Source: Escherichia coli
Lineage (GTDB): Bacteria; Pseudomonadota; Gammaproteobacteria; Enterobacterales; Enterobacteriaceae
Length of the DNA stretch: 7,586 nt
Strand: one strand, 5' to 3'
NCBI RefSeq assembly: GCF_003334815.1
Contig: NZ_QOWO01000067.1
In this document: positions 158-7,586 of the stretch, one piece after another
How positions within the stretch are numbered: the first letter of the stretch is position 1
Layout of the letters: the number at the start of each line of letters is the position of its first letter
The notes under the pieces: model-generated
What the model was told of the DNA's origin: nothing
The model's input: only the letters and a program-made list of their open reading frames with translations
Database searches by the model: none
Translations under genes and position numbers: made by a program

Positions 158-574
158 TCAGTCATCTCCGAACATATTTTCAGCGTTTCTTCTGGTCTGG
201 TCTTCACCGTCATTTCTCGACAGACTCTGCTCTGTAAGAGGAGTACTGCAATCCACAGACGTATGGAGACCAGATTGTTTTTCCAGTAATTCAAGCAATT
301 TCTTTTCAACCGAAAAAGCACCTGGTATTACGCTGGAAATCACCTTATTAATATCATCCAGAGTCGTATTTTCTGTCAGTAACTCCGATATCAGCAAAGG
401 AAGACGTTTATCTATAGCTGCAAACGCCGCACCAGTAACTAACATCGCGCGCATGAAACGTCCCCGCTCCTTCAGTTTTTCATTTGCAATGAGCTCATCT
501 GCTATCTTATCTCCTGTCCGTTCATCCGGGAAAAGTTCAAATGAGCAGCGTCTGGATTTATTTTCATCACTCAT
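158..574 (-). CDS. parR: ParR/StbB-like centromere-binding adaptor of a type II (actin-type) partition system
   Basis: 138-aa ORF. The N-terminal region (RRCSFELFPDERTGDKIADEL...ERGRFMRAMLVTGAAF...LLISELLTENTTLDDINKVI) follows the pattern I associate with the ParR family N-terminal ribbon-helix-helix, and it has an acidic C-terminal tail. ATG at 574..572 overlaps the parM stop (ATGAGTGA, 8-nt overlap). GGTGGT-type Shine-Dalgarno about 9 nt upstream. Confidence 0.8.
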   Translation of the reverse strand: MSDENKSRRCSFELFPDERTGDKIADELIANEKLKERGRFMRAMLVTGAAFAAIDKRLPLLISELLTENTTLDDINKVISSVIPGAFSVEKKLLELLEKQSGLHTSVDCSTPLTEQSLSRNDGEDQTRRNAENMFGDD

Positions 575-1547
575 TAGTCACACCACCTTTCATTTTTATC
601 ATTCCCATGACTAAATCAAACTGCGGGGATGAGCTCAGATAAAAGCGCTCATCAGGAACCTTAGTCAGGTTCTTCACAGCCTCGGCCACAATTTCAGCCC
701 CACCACCAACACACATTACATGTGTATAGTCGGTGAAACGGCTGATGACATCATTAACTCGTTTAATAAGCAACTTCTGCCGTTCATTGATAACATTAAT
801 GATAGACTCACGCTGTTCAGCATTATAAATGCGACGGGAAAGGTAGTCAGGTTCATTACGGTGCACAATGATATTGTCAGCCTGGAATGAGCTCACTCTT
901 GTATTAGCATGTACAGCCATCTGTTCCTTAACCCCGGATGTAATCAGGGACACGCCGATATTCGGATCACACCAGGTTTTTGTAATCCCTGTCATTTTGC
1001 TACGAACATGCGACACATCAAGAGTTGTACCACCGAGATCTACGATCAAAAGGGATTCATCATCCTCAAGCCCCGCAAGAACACTGAAACCAGCGGGAAT
1101 ACTTTCAGGAAGAACGGAAACACTGCGAATAACAAATGCATCACTCCCCTGCACCCGTACTTCACGCATCACATTTTTTTTCTTTCTTTCAATGTTTTGC
1201 TTATTTTTCTGATTGTTGGCGTCAAGGTATTCAGAGATCGGCAATGTGACGATGACATCAACAGGCTGCGCTTTCAGGCCGGTCTGCTGTAGCGCATGCT
1301 GAATGGCCACAACATTCACATCACTGTACTGATAGCGTGTTTCAGTCGTTACGACAGCATCAGCACTTAATGGATCAAATGAAAACTTCTCGCCGTCGAT
1401 CTCGTAATTAGCCGGAGCAGCATCATCCAGTAAACTAAAAGACCATTCCGGTTTAAAGCTGTTAGGGCTGATTAACGTTTTCACGTCACCATCCTCCAAC
1501 CAGGCAAGTTTAATGTTGGTAGAACCATCATCAATAAAGATTTTCAT
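567..1547 (-). CDS. parM: ParM/StbA-like actin-type plasmid segregation ATPase
   Basis: The track ORF 567..1616 contains MKIFIDDGSTNIKLAW..., the phosphate-1 DxGxT/S motif typical of the ParM/StbA N-terminus, plus VDLGGTTLDV (phosphate 2) and CVGGGAEIV (adenosine motif). I place the start at the ATG 1547..1545 (M24 of the track ORF), which has GGAG 8 nt upstream and gives 326 aa, a typical ParM length. The stop overlaps the parR start. Confidence 0.9.
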   Translation of the reverse strand: MKIFIDDGSTNIKLAWLEDGDVKTLISPNSFKPEWSFSLLDDAAPANYEIDGEKFSFDPLSADAVVTTETRYQYSDVNVVAIQHALQQTGLKAQPVDVIVTLPISEYLDANNQKNKQNIERKKKNVMREVRVQGSDAFVIRSVSVLPESIPAGFSVLAGLEDDESLLIVDLGGTTLDVSHVRSKMTGITKTWCDPNIGVSLITSGVKEQMAVHANTRVSSFQADNIIVHRNEPDYLSRRIYNAEQRESIINVINERQKLLIKRVNDVISRFTDYTHVMCVGGGAEIVAEAVKNLTKVPDERFYLSSSPQFDLVMGMIKMKGGVTNE

Positions 1548-1960
1548 AACCAGTCTCCGTTGCTCATAAACAAATAGAAAAAACAAACATGCTTCATACA
1601 TGCAATGTATATTCAATTATAATGAAAAAACGGTCTTTCTGAAAGGACAAATGCAACATAAAAACACGATAAATTGCATGTACATTGTACACACAACTTT
1701 AAGACCAGAGGAAATCATAGATACAAAAACATTATGAAGGTTATATGTGACACATAAATGCAATATAAAAACATCGTGGACATCATGGTTCAGGTTAAGG
1801 GAAAAGGAATGAAATGGTGAAACTGAGAGGAAAGGAAAGCGGTGACGAATCATGTCACCATAAACAGAAAGATGTCTAATGGGGACTCTTTAGGTACGTG
1901 AAGAATCCCCATAACGCATTTAAAAGACACACATCAGATACCCTTAAGGTATCCGATAGT
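1548..1960. promoter_or_regulatory. parC-like centromere/promoter region upstream of parMR, also the downstream flank of the ParA/RHH pair
   Basis: AT-rich non-coding stretch with repeated ATGCAA/TTGCAT units (around 1600, 1650, 1673, 1758). The unit AAATGCAA(C/T)ATAAAAACA occurs twice (about 1649..1667 and 1756..1774). Palindromes: ATACATgcaATGTAT near 1596..1610, GGTGAC-N7-GTCACC at 1839..1857, GATACC-cttaa-GGTATC at 1937..1953. The position matches a type II centromere/promoter; exact binding sites are not determined. Confidence 0.55.
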
Positions 1961-2355: not shown

Positions 2356-3000
2356 TTACTGTTTGTTATTTTCAATCAGATGATTGATTTCTTCGATCAG
2401 GGCAATAACTTCCTTACCTCCTGCCGAATAGCGCCCATGAACAGACTCAGTGATTCCCATCCCAGTCTCAATGACATCCTCAAATTCTGCACGAGCAGAA
2501 ATGCGGCTCTTCATCAGCTTCAGATGTTTGAACGATGGCAGGATTGCATCAAGCTTAGGGAATTTCTTCTTGTTAGGATTAACTTTACAGAGATACAGGT
2601 GAGCAGTTATATCGGTCCCCATGATAGAGCTGATTTCGTCCAGTACTCCATCAAAATGCATCAAACCAATACGTTCAGTCAGGGAGTCTTTTGAAGGGAC
2701 AATAACGCAGTCTGCAAAGGCAATCGCAGTACGGGTAAGATCTGAGTCAAATCCCCCACAGTCAATAAGTAACGTCTTATCGCTGTTCTTGTAGGGAGTC
2801 ATAATTTCGATTAACTCATCCACTGTTTTGGGTACTTTCACGGAAATTTCTTTTCCTTCAGGTCTCAGCCCCAGAATGATAGAAAGCCCGGTATGAGTAT
2901 CCAGATCAACTGTATCAGACTTCATTTCACCAACAATGTTTACGGATGAAGTTGTCTTACCCACACCACCTTTGGGATGCGTATTAGCAATAACAGGCAT
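2356..3000 (-). CDS. parA: Small ParA-family (ParF-like, type Ib) deviant Walker-A partition ATPase
   Basis: Deviant Walker A KGGVGKTT near the N-terminus, LLIDCGG and a VIVP Walker-B-like hydrophobic strand. Start placed at ATG 3000..2998 (M23 of track ORF 2356..3066), with GGAG 7 nt upstream, giving 214 aa, the size class of type Ib ParA/ParF proteins that lack an N-terminal HTH. Confidence 0.8.
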   Translation of the reverse strand: MPVIANTHPKGGVGKTTSSVNIVGEMKSDTVDLDTHTGLSIILGLRPEGKEISVKVPKTVDELIEIMTPYKNSDKTLLIDCGGFDSDLTRTAIAFADCVIVPSKDSLTERIGLMHFDGVLDEISSIMGTDITAHLYLCKVNPNKKKFPKLDAILPSFKHLKLMKSRISARAEFEDVIETGMGITESVHGRYSAGGKEVIALIEEINHLIENNKQ

Positions 3001-3179
3001 AGTGTATCTCCAGAATCCACATGTAATACCCATAAAGACCCCATAAGACACCTTTCGGATATCCAAGAGGTACTCAATAGATGTTTTTTTACTCTATACC
3101 GGTCCTGCATGTCAACAGAATATGAAATACCGATAATATATCCATGAGATATCCGAAAGGGATTTAAAAAAGTCAGAGC
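3001..3179. promoter_or_regulatory. Promoter/operator region upstream of the ParA-like gene
   Basis: Non-coding gap between the recombinase stop (3180) and the ParA-like start (3000). Contains the palindrome GGATATCC (3057..3064) and GATATCC (3148..3154), related to GGATAC/GATACC motifs on the other side of the operon. Confidence 0.4.
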
Positions 3180-3959
3180 TTATGGAATTCTTTTGAGCAT
3201 AGACACCGCATCGGACTCAGGCATCGAAAACTGCACCCGGTGCCGTGCAGCCACATCCAGTGCAAACACCTTCGTGTAGACCTCCGTTGAGCTGATGGAC
3301 TTATGCCCCATCAGGCTCTGCAGGACCTTCAGCGGTATACCGGCATACAGCATATGCATCGCATAGGAATGGCGGAACGTATGTGGCGTGACCGGGACAG
3401 AGAACGTCACACCGTCAGCGGCAGCGGCGGCAACCGCCTCCCCAATCCAGGTCCTGACCGTTCTGTCCGTCACTTCCCATATCCGCGCTTTCTCTGTCCT
3501 GCCTGTTCGTTTATTACGCCGTTCCATGGGGATTTTCAGTGTGGCCACCATCGTCTGCAGCTGGCTGACGTACCAGGCGTCGGAGAGCGGAACCAGCCGG
3601 TGAGTCTGCTGACCGGCGGGCATTCTTCCTGCCGTCCTGGCGGCTTTTTCCGTCCGTTGTTTCAGGGTCGCAAGCTGCACAAACGGATACGGAGGCGTGA
3701 GCGAAAAATCCCCCCGCGTCAGCGCCAGTGCTTCATTAATGCGCGCACCGGTGTTCCACAGTGTGGCCAGCAGCATCTTGCGGCGCAGATCCGGGACGTA
3801 ATGGAGCAGGGCGCTCACTTCAGGGGCCAGCAGGTATTTGGGCAGTTCATCATGAACCATCGACATCTGGCGGAGTGCCAGCGCTGCCGGATAATCGATG
3901 GCAACAGGAAGCTGAGCGGCATCCCGGGCATGGTGGATCGGTGCCGGCAGGTGCTGCAT
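3180..3959 (-). CDS. Tyrosine site-specific recombinase (plasmid resolvase/integrase family, ResD-like)
   Basis: The C-terminal region carries the tyrosine-recombinase box II signature HTFRHSYAMHML...LMGHKSISSTEVYTKV (His-x-x-Arg, then His, then the catalytic Tyr), and an ARINEAL-type box I arginine sits earlier. Start placed at ATG 3959..3957 (M52 of track ORF 3180..4112), 1 nt after the stop of the upstream ORF, giving 259 aa. Overall it resembles plasmid multimer-resolution recombinases of F-like/I-like plasmids, as recalled from memory, not searched. Confidence 0.85.
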   Translation of the reverse strand: MQHLPAPIHHARDAAQLPVAIDYPAALALRQMSMVHDELPKYLLAPEVSALLHYVPDLRRKMLLATLWNTGARINEALALTRGDFSLTPPYPFVQLATLKQRTEKAARTAGRMPAGQQTHRLVPLSDAWYVSQLQTMVATLKIPMERRNKRTGRTEKARIWEVTDRTVRTWIGEAVAAAAADGVTFSVPVTPHTFRHSYAMHMLYAGIPLKVLQSLMGHKSISSTEVYTKVFALDVAARHRVQFSMPESDAVSMLKRIP

Positions 3960-3960
3960 A

Positions 3961-4374
3961 TCAGTGTTCACTCCACGGGGAAACGTCGGGCAGGTTTTCC
4001 ACAACCCTGTATTTTCCCGGATAACGGAGCTGGTTACCGCCACGCGTCCGGACGGTGACAACAAAACCCCCGCCCTGGTTGTTTTCGGGGAGCAGGCGAT
4101 CGCACTGCTCACTCAGCATGTGGATCACAAACGGCGCATCGCTGCCGTCTTCAAATATCAGTTCCAGCGCATCGCGGCCATCCAGCGTTCCCTTACTGAT
4201 GATGACGTACTCAGCCCCCCGCATCTCCCTGAGTAAATGTTTTGCCGCATCCGGGACAAGCAGCCTGGCTTCGCCGGCATTCCAGCTGAGGTAGACATAT
4301 CCGGCCTGCGCCTGTACAGACTGCCAGTAATCCGTTCTGGCGACAGCCTGACCTTCATTCTCAATAAAAAACAT
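3961..4374 (-). CDS. Hypothetical 137-aa protein, first gene of the recombinase operon
   Basis: Track ORF 3961..4413. I start it at ATG 4374..4372 (MFFIENEGQAV...) because of a strong AAGGAG 8 nt upstream. The stop TGA at 3963..3961 is separated by 1 nt from the recombinase ATG (TGATATG). No recognisable catalytic motif or membrane segments; family not recognised. Confidence 0.6.
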   Translation of the reverse strand: MFFIENEGQAVARTDYWQSVQAQAGYVYLSWNAGEARLLVPDAAKHLLREMRGAEYVIISKGTLDGRDALELIFEDGSDAPFVIHMLSEQCDRLLPENNQGGGFVVTVRTRGGNQLRYPGKYRVVENLPDVSPWSEH

Positions 4375-4811: not shown

Positions 4812-4867
4812 AAAATCATATCAGATATGATTTTCATCATTGATGATAGAACCATATCTGATATTAT
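4812..4867. promoter_or_regulatory. Palindromic operator array and candidate sigma70 promoter for the + strand operon starting at 4943
   Basis: Perfect 23-bp palindrome AAAATCATATC-A-GATATGATTTT (4812..4834); 13-bp palindrome TCATCA-T-TGATGA (4834..4846); 11-bp palindrome ATATC-T-GATAT (4854..4864). Candidate -35 TTGATG (4840..4845) and -10 TATTAT (4862..4867) with a 16-bp spacer overlap the palindromes. Confidence 0.45.
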
Positions 4868-4942: not shown

Positions 4943-5197
4943 ATGGATGAAGAAAGGGTGTTTTCACTCAGCTATGAGCAACTAACCCGAATAGCGGAAA
5001 AAAATATCCGTGAATGTGGGCTGGACAACCAGAGCGCCAGGTGTATCAGTGAACTGAAGGCCTCAGCTCTGCTGTGGTTGTGGTATGAACTGGCCATTCA
5101 TGGTGCGCCACAGAACAATCACGCACAGGCCCGGGAACGCATCGATACCGATTATCAGCGCCTCAAAAAACTCATCTGGTCGGAGGGTGACAGTTAA
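4943..5197 (+). CDS. Hypothetical 84-aa protein, first gene of a two-gene operon
   Basis: ATG at 4943 with GGAG about 10 nt upstream. The stop TAA (5195..5197) overlaps the next ATG (TAATG). No transmembrane segment; family not recognised. The + strand is preferred over the long antisense ORF (5063..5803, -), whose translation is an Arg/Pro/Ala-rich artefact typical of the reverse strand of a GC-rich gene. Confidence 0.55.
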   Translation: MDEERVFSLSYEQLTRIAEKNIRECGLDNQSARCISELKASALLWLWYELAIHGAPQNNHAQARERIDTDYQRLKKLIWSEGDS

Positions 5198-5787: not shown

Positions 5788-5806
5788 GAACACGCCTGTG
5801 CACGGT

Positions 5807-6154
5807 TTACACATCATCCCATGGTGGCAGCCGGTTAACTTTCCTGCGCCACCAGTGGAAAGAGGCCATGCACAGTCCGAACAAAAAACCACCCGTGATA
5901 CTTATAATAATGGCCTCACCTGCCACCATTCCTGACGGCCCCCAGTAGGTAAACCACATTACACATCCCCAGGAAATGCCCCATAAGCCCCCCGTCAGCA
6001 CCGTGACCTGCCAGAACGGCATAAAGGGTAATGGCGGAAGCCGGATACCCAGCCGCCATAGAATACGCAGAAGAGGAGGGGCATAATTGCTCCGCCACAT
6101 CTTTTTGCTGTCCATCAGGGCAATGGCCCGGGCTTTTTTCTGCTCAAAGGTCAC
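5807..6154 (-). CDS. Small inner-membrane protein (two predicted transmembrane helices), function unknown
   Basis: 115-aa ORF with a GTG start at 6154..6152, preceded by GGAGG at 7-nt spacing. Two hydrophobic segments (VTVLTGGLWGISWGCVMWFTYW and MVAGEAIIISITGGFLFGLCMASFHWW) and a positively charged C-terminus. Convergent with the 196-aa gene (19-bp gap between stops). Confidence 0.55.
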   Translation of the reverse strand: MTFEQKKARAIALMDSKKMWRSNYAPPLLRILWRLGIRLPPLPFMPFWQVTVLTGGLWGISWGCVMWFTYWGPSGMVAGEAIIISITGGFLFGLCMASFHWWRRKVNRLPPWDDV

Positions 6155-6192
6155 AGGAGCACCTCCGTTCCATGATGTAAACGTGACACAGC

Positions 6193-6260
6193 TTATTGTT
6201 ATTGATTATTATTATCATGCTGTGATTATGTTATCACGCACCGGTACACGATAACAATAA
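6193..6260. promoter_or_regulatory. Inverted-repeat-flanked promoter region upstream of the immunity gene
   Basis: Perfect 10-bp inverted repeat TTATTGTTAT (6193..6202) and ATAACAATAA (6251..6260), separated by 48 bp that contain two TGATTAT-N-TTATCA(T/C)G direct repeats. An AAGGAG Shine-Dalgarno lies 7 nt before the ATG at 6273. Confidence 0.4.
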
Positions 6261-6272
6261 AGGAGAAACCAG

Positions 6273-6620
6273 ATGAAACTGGATATATCTGTAAAGTATT
6301 TACTGAAAAGCCTGATACCAAGCCTCATTATTCTTACAGTTTTTTATCTGGGATGGAAAGATAACCAGGAAAATGCAAGAATGTTTTATGCGTTCATCGG
6401 ATGCATTATCAATGCCATTACTTTTCCTTTTTCAATGAGGATAATACAGAAAATGGTAATAAAGTTTACAGGGAAAGAACTCTGGCAAAAAGACTTCTTT
6501 ACAAATCCAGTTGGCGGAAGCTTAACTGCAATATTTGAATTATTCTGTTTCGTTATATCAGTTCCTGTGGTTGCCATTTACTTAATTTTTATATTCTGCA
6601 AAGCCCTTTCAGGAAAATGA
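6273..6620 (+). CDS. Pore-forming colicin immunity protein (colicin Ia/Ib-type, three transmembrane helices)
   Basis: 115-aa protein with three hydrophobic helices (LIPSLIILTVFYLGW; MFYAFIGCIINAITFPFSM; LTAIFELFCFVISVPVVAIYLIFIFC). Convergent with the colicin gene, 17 bp from its stop, which is the arrangement known for immunity genes of pore-forming colicins. Its length matches my recollection of the Ib-type immunity protein, unverified. Confidence 0.8.
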   Translation: MKLDISVKYLLKSLIPSLIILTVFYLGWKDNQENARMFYAFIGCIINAITFPFSMRIIQKMVIKFTGKELWQKDFFTNPVGGSLTAIFELFCFVISVPVVAIYLIFIFCKALSGK

Positions 6621-6637
6621 AAGGGCATCATTATGTG

Positions 6638-7586
6638 TCAGATACCAATAAGTTTATTGACCTGCTCAATAAACTTATCATTAACAAGCGCACTCACAGC
6701 CGCCATAATAATTGCAAAACCCAGAATACCTACAGGGGTTCCCAGCATGACGGAAAACGTCCATGCTGTAACTGCTGAAGCAGCTCTTCCTGCTGCCAGT
6801 GATTCAAGTTTTACAAAAAATGGACGCCAGTTGTCCGTTTTTACAGCCTTTTGTAACTCCACAGCAACATCATAACGATCAATAACTTTTCCGGTAAAAC
6901 CAAATGCCTTACTGAACAGCTTAAAATTCTCCGCCATATGGACCTGATTAATAGCTTCCAGGGCTTTAGAAATGGCCATGCGATCTTGTATGCTATATTT
7001 CTTGTTCAGATTATTACGGAATTTATCAAAAGCGTTCAGTGCATCATCCACACTCTTAATCTGTTTCCCTTGAGATACAGAAGCCAGCTCCTTAGCAAGT
7101 TCGGATGCTTGTTTACCGAACTCATCATATATCGTTCTGTAGAAATCAGAGGTGAGTTTTATGGCATCCTTTACCATATTTATTTCATCCCTTTTTCTTT
7201 TCTCTTCCGCTATTTTCTGATTGATGTCAGCAAGCTGGCTACGGATATTCTCTTTTTCCTTCAACAGGGCATTAAGAGCGTCATTTGCATGCTTTTGTTC
7301 ATTTGTTCTGGCACTGACGTTATTTCTCGCCGAATTTATCGCAGATTCAGCAGAGGTGATTTTATTTCTGGCATCAAGCAATCGTTGCCGTAACTTATCC
7401 CATTCAGCAACTTCAGCATTATAAATTTTCTTGTCACCTTCCACATCCTCTGTAACCACCGGATTCCGGTCATTCAGAATATTGCGTTTATAGTCCAGAC
7501 CGGAATGGGTCAGAAGATAATTCAGGTTTGCACGGTTATCGATGACTGCGCTGGTTGTGATTTTTATCGTACCGGCAAATCTCGGA
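6638..7586 (-). CDS. Pore-forming colicin of the Ia/Ib family, 3' portion (channel-forming domain); 5' end lies beyond the window
   Basis: The frame is open from the window edge (first full codon 7585..7583) to TGA at 6640..6638. The track's GTG start at 7459 is an internal valine: manual translation upstream of it continues without stops (...TTSAVIDNRANLNYLLTHSGLDYKRNILNDRNPVVTEDVEGDKK...). The C-terminus (...DNWRPFFVKLESLAAGRAASAVTAWTFSVMLGTPVGILGFAIIMAAVSALVNDKFIEQVNKLIGI) has the hydrophobic helical hairpin of a colicin channel domain and matches my memory of colicin I-type sequence. Confidence 0.85.
   Translation of the reverse strand, partial: PRFAGTIKITTSAVIDNRANLNYLLTHSGLDYKRNILNDRNPVVTEDVEGDKKIYNAEVAEWDKLRQRLLDARNKITSAESAINSARNNVSARTNEQKHANDALNALLKEKENIRSQLADINQKIAEEKRKRDEINMVKDAIKLTSDFYRTIYDEFGKQASELAKELASVSQGKQIKSVDDALNAFDKFRNNLNKKYSIQDRMAISKALEAINQVHMAENFKLFSKAFGFTGKVIDRYDVAVELQKAVKTDNWRPFFVKLESLAAGRAASAVTAWTFSVMLGTPVGILGFAIIMAAVSALVNDKFIEQVNKLIGI

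Follow-up and report, generated by a model that had tools for sequence, protein, structure and literature searches.

The immunity control region and its inverted repeat

The DNA analysed here, a stretch of 7,586 nt referred to as the window, is a segment of a ColIb-P9-type/IncI-type plasmid, as indicated by its open reading frames and by the plasmids that match it; the same sources identify a ParM-like gene, a ParA-like gene and an integrase gene among its other genes. A 126 nt intergenic stretch of the window is 100% identical to the corresponding DNA of ColIb-P9 of Shigella sonnei (NC_002122.1). The features of this region are collected in Table 1. The gene imm, annotated in matching plasmids as encoding the colicin Ib immunity protein, is divergent from a gene encoding a DUF6404 protein and convergent with the 3' part of the colicin gene cib. 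The immunity protein matched the colicin E1 immunity family of Pfam (PF03526, E = 5.8e-6), NCBIfam assigned neither of the two small proteins to any family, and BLASTP revealed no relationship between the DUF6404 protein and Imm.

The arrangement is that of the pore-forming colicins E1, A, B, N, Ia and Ib, in which the immunity gene lies on the opposite strand, is convergent with the colicin gene, and has its own promoter. The expression of immunity genes in this class of colicins is usually described as constitutive. For imm, a sigma-70 promoter with 10 of 12 consensus matches was predicted, from which we infer a transcript start near position 6219–6220, and a second, divergent promoter was predicted for the DUF6404 gene. 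The −35 element of the latter reads ATGACA in the majority form of the colicin Ia and IncF loci (majority alleles G6233 and T6237). Both promoters are consensus matches only, each with a suboptimal spacer of 18 nt.

Table 1. Features of the imm control region and the adjoining genes (window positions).
Feature	Position	Strand	Description
DUF6404 (PF19942) gene	5807–6154	−	115 aa; divergent from imm; GTG start, GGAGG ribosome-binding site
Predicted sigma-70 promoter of imm	6183–6212	+	−35 GTGACA 6183–6188; 18 nt spacer; −10 TATTAT 6207–6212
Left arm of the dyad	6193–6202		TTATTGTTAT; on the − strand, AATAAC AATAAG, the distal portion of Fur-type hexamers arrayed head to tail
Predicted Fur box	6198–6216	−	GATAATAATAATCAATAAC; 16/19 to the 19 bp consensus GATAATGATAATCATTATC; 15/19 on the + strand
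First inner repeat	6203–6217		TGATTATTATTATCA; 13/14 to the 7-1-7 Fur motif TGATAATnATTATCA
Predicted divergent promoter of the DUF6404 gene	6208–6237	−	−35 GTGATA 6237–6232; 18 nt spacer; −10 AATAAT 6213–6208
Second inner repeat	6223–6236		TGATTATGTTATCA; degenerate, variable Fur-like half-site pair, no central spacer
Inner inverted repeat	6229–6256	+	TGTTATC-N14-GATAACA; arms 6229–6235 and 6250–6256 (repeat search)
Right arm of the dyad	6251–6260		ATAACAATAA; A-rich stretch of the Ib-type imm leader reaching the first Shine-Dalgarno base
Shine-Dalgarno sequence of imm	6260–6265	+	AAGGAG; 7 nt before the ATG at 6273
imm, colicin Ib immunity protein	6273–6620	+	115 aa; from the open reading frame list
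cib, 3' part, colicin Ib pore-forming domain	6638–7586	−	Convergent with imm
cib promoter	Beyond the window		Published Fur and LexA sites

A first-pass annotation of the window had pointed out a perfect 10 bp inverted repeat just before the immunity Shine-Dalgarno sequence. Direct reading and a repeat search both recovered this dyad, with arms that are 100% complementary and separated by 48 nt, and the Shine-Dalgarno sequence and the imm start codon come straight after the right arm. Two direct TGATTAT-N-TTATCA repeats had been described between the arms, which is nearly but not exactly the case, as the two units are not identical (TGATTAT-TA-TTATCA, 15 nt, versus TGATTAT-G-TTATCA, 14 nt). In the repeat search, they appeared as two copies of TGATTAT at a spacing of 20 nt and two copies of TTATCA(T/C)GC at a spacing of 19 nt.

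In dinucleotide shuffles of the whole window, perfect inverted repeats with arms of 10 bp or more and a loop of at most 100 nt numbered 0.63–0.70. Therefore, one such repeat is expected somewhere in 7.6 kb; the real window contains eight. When the 118 nt intergenic region alone was subjected to dinucleotide shuffling, which does not control for the low-complexity TTATTG/ATT units that compose both arms and make up the whole AT-rich block, such a repeat was obtained in only 0.5% of the cases. Single-strand folding of the canonical Ib region gave z = −2.3 as RNA and z = −3.4 as DNA. Thus, the dyad is real, and self-complementarity is locally somewhat above chance. With the promoters predicted here, neither transcript would include both arms. 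The centres of the arms are 58 bp apart, a distance that does not suit a dimeric operator.

Several other inverted repeats were observed in the window. A perfect 13 bp repeat (ATAAGTTTATTGA-N5-TCAATAAACTTAT, 6648–6678) lies in the last cib codons, 28 nt past the imm stop codon, and, in the RNA fold predicted for this segment (z = −1.85), pairs into an AU-rich stem of 13 bp. This stem may terminate or stabilise the convergent transcripts of imm and cib; it was missed by a terminator scan because it has neither G+C pairs nor a T run. A near-perfect palindrome, AAAATCATATC-A-GATATGATTTT, is located at 4812–4834 and is followed by a second, related copy at 4850–4867 upstream of a small ORF (4943–5197); the two look like an operator pair. 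Another perfect 13 bp repeat (CCTTTCGGATATC at 3051–3063 and GATATCCGAAAGG at 3148–3160), whose arms are separated by 84 nt, encloses the gap between the integrase gene (3180–4112, minus strand) and the ParA-like gene (2356–3066, minus strand) and may be a recombination or partition-related site. A 14 nt repeat that is 93% complementary (TACATGCAATGTAT at 1597–1610 and ATAAATTGCATGTA at 1669–1682) is situated at the start of the ParM-like gene (567–1616, minus strand) and immediately upstream of it.

Distribution of the dyad and of the conserved block in related loci

In a megablast search, the region was found in 2956 plasmid records, only 648 of which extend through the Ib-type imm gene. For a detailed survey, loci retrieved by a metagenome scan with a conserved 21-mer were combined with plasmid loci, resulting in 123 usable loci with 75 distinct sequences; positions 6162–6182 are fixed by the search pattern of this survey. 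All relatives are close, with at least about 87% identity, and conservation can therefore be judged only to a limited depth; more distant intergenic DNA is absent from PLSDB.

A comparison with related colicin Ia and Ib plasmids had been suggested as a check on the dyad, and it turned out that the dyad is not kept. The left arm is present in all 123 loci, independently of the presence of a right arm. A perfect right arm occurs in 23 loci, all of them Ib; in a further 8 loci it matches at nine of ten positions, and it is absent in 92, namely all 56 colicin Ia loci, all 30 IncF remnants, and 6 junctions with other DNA. The imperfect form (ATGACAATAA), which characterises one Ib sub-lineage, carries an uncompensated A-to-G change together with an 8 bp deletion that reduces the gap between the arms from 48 nt to 40 nt. 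Across the loci, this gap is 48 nt, or 40 or 47 nt in variants, and no compensatory changes between the arms were found among the 123 loci.

The right arm occupies positions −22 to −13 relative to the imm start codon, in Ib-specific sequence to the right of a break in the homology between Ia and Ib. This break is illustrated by the colicin Ia plasmid pSAN1-1727, where homology extends from the DUF6404 gene to about 6249 and then ends, the right arm being replaced by CTGACAAAAGTGC. Colicin Ia modules have the same gene arrangement as Ib modules and a different A-rich leader at the place of the right arm. On the IncF plasmids, the DUF6404 gene is followed by a remnant of the start of an Ia-type imm gene, again without a right arm.

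The folding results follow the same lines. Only the canonical Ib region folds better than its shuffled versions, and no excess folding was found for the Ia, IncF, variant Ib and diverged Salmonella Oslo regions (z from −0.77 to +1.5). The survey of the 123 loci rules out the dyad as a conserved functional unit, and a structure of the whole region, as RNA or DNA, was rejected as well. Of the two roles that the first-pass annotation had offered for the dyad, a structure affecting expression finds no support in Ia, IncF and variant Ib loci. The other, a site for a regulatory protein, has to be divided: the control region of imm very probably does contain such a site, but the dyad is not that site, given that its right arm is not conserved.

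What is conserved is a block that includes the left arm. Among the 75 distinct sequences, positions 6193–6209 are invariant and positions 6210–6217 are nearly so, and the flanking positions 6191–6192 and 6218–6225 are hot spots of substitutions and deletions. In the diverged module of S. Oslo, the left arm differs by a single T-to-C change.

The survey also yielded observations on the fate of individual modules. On IncF and IncX1 plasmids (L003, about 3450–3520; L004, 2501–2700), the control region is followed by no more than the initial codons of an Ia-type immunity gene (ATGAACAGGAAATATTATCTTAAT...); these stubs look like scars of lost colicin Ia modules, and the Fur-like box of the IncX1 copy, described below, is decayed as well (14/19). 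In three metagenome contigs (L040, L043 and L066; pattern start plus about 50 nt), the conserved region stops at ...TGATTATTATCATGC(T/A)GTGATATCCGGACAG and is followed by unrelated DNA, with one ATT unit of the box missing (14/19). These ends are probably insertion or rearrangement junctions at about 6222–6226, where the substitutions and the 8 bp deletion of other lineages cluster. On a plasmid of strain ECOR 3 (L001, 3839–5582), whose immunity region is 100% identical to 5800–6640 of the window, the colicin gene is annotated with only 1275 nt and overlaps a CDS for a hypothetical protein; in this plasmid, the toxin gene may be disrupted and imm kept.

Similarity of the conserved block to Fur boxes

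The conserved block resembles a binding site of the iron regulator Fur. The matches of the predicted Fur box and of the first inner repeat (Table 1) are the best Fur matches of the whole window, and the densest cluster of perfect NATWAT hexamers of the window is found at 6204–6230, with six of eight hexamers at 6204–6216. In our own reading of the minus strand, the sequence from 6216 to 6192 is GATAAT AATAAT C AATAAC AATAAG, and on this view the left arm would be the distal pair of hexamer-like units in an extended Fur array. The second inner repeat, which overlaps the predicted −35 element of the minus-strand promoter, varies at positions 6225, 6233 and 6237, is partly deleted in one Ib lineage, and reads TGATTGTGCTGTCA in S. 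Oslo.

The rarity of such matches was assessed in several ways. In shuffles of the intergenic region, 16/19 was reached in at most 1 of 5000 cases, and the same was true for 13/14. Over 100 kb of E. coli K-12, comprising the ent-fep cluster and cirA, 16/19 occurred only at the fepD-entS promoter. In the same scan, fepB-entC scored 15/19 and 13/14, the entC promoter being the only one to reach the latter value, the cirA promoter scored only 14/19, and one hit of 15/19 was located inside a coding region. Thus, the match in the imm region equals or beats those of known Fur-controlled K-12 promoters in the scanned regions. In 1.07 Mb of scanned DNA, matches of at least 16/19 were found at about 8–10 distinct sites, among them the imm box and the colicin promoter. 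Altogether, 118 of the 123 loci have a Fur box of at least 16/19, and in one natural variant the score rises to 17/19; the lowest scores (14/19) belong to the decayed IncX1 remnant and to copies beside junctions with foreign DNA. A homologue of imm from Morganella (56% identical) is uninformative, with a Fur match of only 14/19 in an upstream region that can barely be aligned.

Other candidate sites were considered for the same region. A LexA box (CTGT-N8-ACAG, at most one mismatch) does not occur in 6155–6272, and comparison with consensus sequences by eye gave no convincing match to IHF, Zur or other AT-rich sites. In the literature that was searched, no footprint, ChIP data, reporter study or mapped start site of the imm promoter was found. 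A preprint of 2024 states that imm is Fur-regulated and shows no data for this.

The most direct comparison is that with the colicin promoter of the same module. Over 6.4 kb of the Ia plasmid locus, the only other strong Fur match is GTTAATGATAATCACTATC (17/19, and 13/14), which lies directly upstream of the −35 element TTGACA of the colicin promoter and is followed downstream by a LexA-type box. For Pcib, Spriewald et al. placed the Fur site directly upstream of the −35 element, and iron-dependent repression of this promoter has been established by reporters and immunoblots (PMC4675545, PMC3879352). Taken together, the match at imm and that at the colicin promoter mean that the module is bracketed by two Fur-type boxes of near-equal quality, the function of one of which is experimentally supported. 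The two boxes belong to the same module and the same motif class, have similar strengths (16/19 and 13/14 at imm, 17/19 and 13/14 at Pcia/Pcib), and would follow the same physiological logic. They differ in their setting: the Pcib box acts just upstream of the −35 element and works together with a LexA box, whereas the predicted imm box lies over both predicted −10 hexamers, those of two divergent promoters that are themselves consensus predictions, and has no LexA-like box nearby.

Comparable systems exist elsewhere. The bidirectional promoters fepD-entS, fepB-entC and fepA-fes of the E. coli enterobactin cluster are controlled by Fur and, as in the present case, serve divergent genes with a common short AT-rich intergenic region that holds matches to the Fur consensus, although there the genes are chromosomal iron-uptake genes and here they are a plasmid-borne toxin immunity gene and a gene for a small membrane protein. 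On colicin V (microcin V) plasmids, the cvi-cvaC and cvaA promoters are reportedly regulated by iron and Fur, which provides a precedent for Fur control of the immunity gene of a bacteriocin that enters via an iron-regulated receptor. In that system, however, immunity and toxin genes share one operon, whereas imm has a promoter of its own and is convergent with the toxin gene. Compared with the immunity genes regarded as constitutive, the Ia/Ib pair has an operator resembling a Fur box over the promoter, which speaks against simple constitutive expression in these two.

A possible iron response of imm and alternative explanations

In our view, these features are probably best explained by a Fur operator that makes imm, and likely also the DUF6404 gene, responsive to iron, the dyad being a by-product that is confined to one lineage. 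The motif is strong, rare, conserved and linked to imm; Fur binding, as well as the direction and size of its effect, are what we infer for promoters whose positions are themselves predicted. The putative operator (about 6192–6217) would consist of the left arm and the first inner repeat and extend across the −10 hexamers of the back-to-back promoters. When iron is plentiful, Fe(II)-Fur bound to this array would occlude both −10 regions and lower the activity of both promoters. When iron is scarce, imm and the DUF6404 gene would be derepressed together with cib and the gene for the receptor CirA, so that immunity would rise in step with toxin and receptor. It has been described that iron limitation derepresses the colicin promoter while CirA is also induced (PMC3879352, PMC4675545). 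Given the strong Fur match of the conserved block, colicin immunity is therefore probably raised under iron scarcity. The dyad is present only in the Ib lineage, whose A-rich leader happens to contain ATAACAATAA, the complement of two hexamer-like units of the operator.

Occlusion of a promoter by Fur is an entirely conventional mechanism, and in this module the other promoter is already known to be under Fur control. If Fur controls imm, producers of colicins Ia and Ib would tie the toxin, the CirA receptor and their own protection to a single signal. This would refine the common statement that the immunity of pore formers is constitutive, and it would bear on the competition between Salmonella and E. 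coli in the inflamed, iron-poor gut as well as on reports that imm seems dispensable in some conditions. It would also provide a first regulatory clue for the very widespread plasmid gene encoding the DUF6404 protein.

The most probable alternative, although we regard it as unlikely, dispenses with a dedicated regulator. Positions 6183–6217 would then be kept as core elements of overlapping, divergent, constitutive promoters, the likeness to a Fur box would be a by-product of AT-rich −10 regions, which look somewhat like Fur boxes in general, and the dyad would be due to chance, as expected for one perfect 10 bp repeat per window. The predicted −10 hexamers of both strands do lie inside the block, and the textbook view of pore-former immunity agrees with this explanation. 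Conservation alone cannot distinguish a Fur box from core promoter elements, because 6155–6217 is well conserved throughout, the relatives are close, and 6162–6182 is fixed by the search pattern. The rarity of the match speaks against a by-product, since composition-matched shuffles hardly ever reach it and, in the 100 kb of K-12, the sole 15/19 match outside known Fur promoters is in coding DNA. Furthermore, nothing comparable occurs in the module apart from the colicin promoter's published Fur site, and the invariant block continues to 6193–6202, which is more than a −10 hexamer needs. Purely constitutive expression of imm is doubtful because the control region very probably holds a site for a regulatory protein.

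An improbable variant accepts the Fur box and assigns it to the DUF6404 gene only, with imm being expressed constitutively from a promoter that is unaffected by the box. Its appeal lies in the IncF plasmids that lack imm and the colicin gene and have kept an intact DUF6404 gene and the box (16/19 in 28 of the 30 IncF loci with an imm remnant), and in the good −35 element ATGACA of the majority form of the minus-strand promoter. The diverged, Ia-like module of S. Oslo points in the opposite direction. Its imm is 83% identical, its colicin is intact (626 aa), and it has ParG instead of the DUF6404 gene upstream; nevertheless, the block is kept ahead of imm from about 6174 (GTAAACGTGACACAGCTTATTGTCATTGATTATTATTATAA), with homology starting just upstream of the predicted imm −35 element. 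Its imm box is weaker (14/19 and 12/14), a drop that counts against a Fur operator, and the box of its colicin promoter scores 16/19. Moreover, the only promoter-like site on the plus strand upstream of imm has its −10 element inside the box. None of three distant DUF6404 homologues in Klebsiella, Serratia and Xenorhabdus has a Fur box immediately upstream of its gene, and the idea that DUF6404 genes generally carry a Fur box was rejected on these grounds. The S. Oslo module and the distant homologues speak for a role of the box at imm, the IncF plasmids speak for a role at the DUF6404 gene as well, and the simplest reading is that one operator is common to two divergent promoters, as in the enterobactin cluster.

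We consider it quite improbable that the inner inverted repeat of the imm leader forms a hairpin that stabilises the mRNA or tunes translation just upstream of the Shine-Dalgarno sequence. The colicin Ia leader has TTGTCA/TGACAA at the same place despite its different right-hand sequence, position 6233 shows what looks like an A-T to G-C exchange, and four independent single changes all lead to G.U or U.G pairs on the plus strand. Yet the chance of four wobble-compatible transitions is about 1 in 16, the pairing in Ia needs a register shift with the loss of one pair, and S. Oslo carries an uncompensated T-to-C change. In addition, the hairpin is absent from the minimum-energy fold, and the leader folds with z = −1.8 in Ib and +0.46 in Ia.

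Least probable of all is a functional dyad in Ib plasmids, with arms acting as half-sites of a DNA-looping regulator or as an RNA or extruded-DNA stem that modulates imm, as its perfection, its rarity in shuffled intergenic regions and the folding of the canonical Ib region are outweighed by the absence of the right arm from 92 of the 123 loci, including all Ia modules, the uncompensated change and shortened gap in one Ib lineage, the conservation of the left arm independently of its partner, the lack of excess folding in the Ia, IncF, variant Ib and S. Oslo regions, and the prediction that neither mRNA would contain both arms. CGATAACAAT is common to the right arm and the best Fur-consensus match of the K-12 cirA promoter, and the arm could for this reason be a weak auxiliary Fur half-site in Ib; nothing requires such a role, and the right arm by itself matches only about 10 positions of the Fur 19-mer in a letter count by hand.

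The Fur operator that we favour can be extended to the function of the DUF6404 gene. In this extension, which is speculative and has rather little probability as a whole, a single Fur operator would co-regulate imm and the DUF6404 gene, immunity would be tuned by iron to the density of CirA, and the DUF6404 protein would be regulated by iron and work together with the colicin I module. This membrane protein could, for example, act as a further immunity or tolerance factor or help to release the colicin; colicin I has no lysis gene. A partner role, if true, would explain why the gene and the operator have been kept on thousands of plasmids after loss of the colicin.

The DUF6404 gene adjoins imm on plasmids of both the Ia and the Ib type, and many IncF plasmids retain it next to the decayed start of an Ia-type imm gene (loci L003, L127, L130 and L132). 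Its homologues in Klebsiella, Serratia and Xenorhabdus, with 55–61% identity, are located in unrelated chromosomal or prophage-like contexts. On another IncF plasmid (L005, 3846–3870), a 15/19 match to the Fur consensus comes after a truncated Ib-type colicin gene and upstream of a small ORF and of two kinds of genes, one annotated as encoding an asparagine synthase-related protein and the other a lasso peptide biosynthesis B2 protein; the arrangement resembles a lasso-peptide microcin cluster with a Fur-like box of its own.
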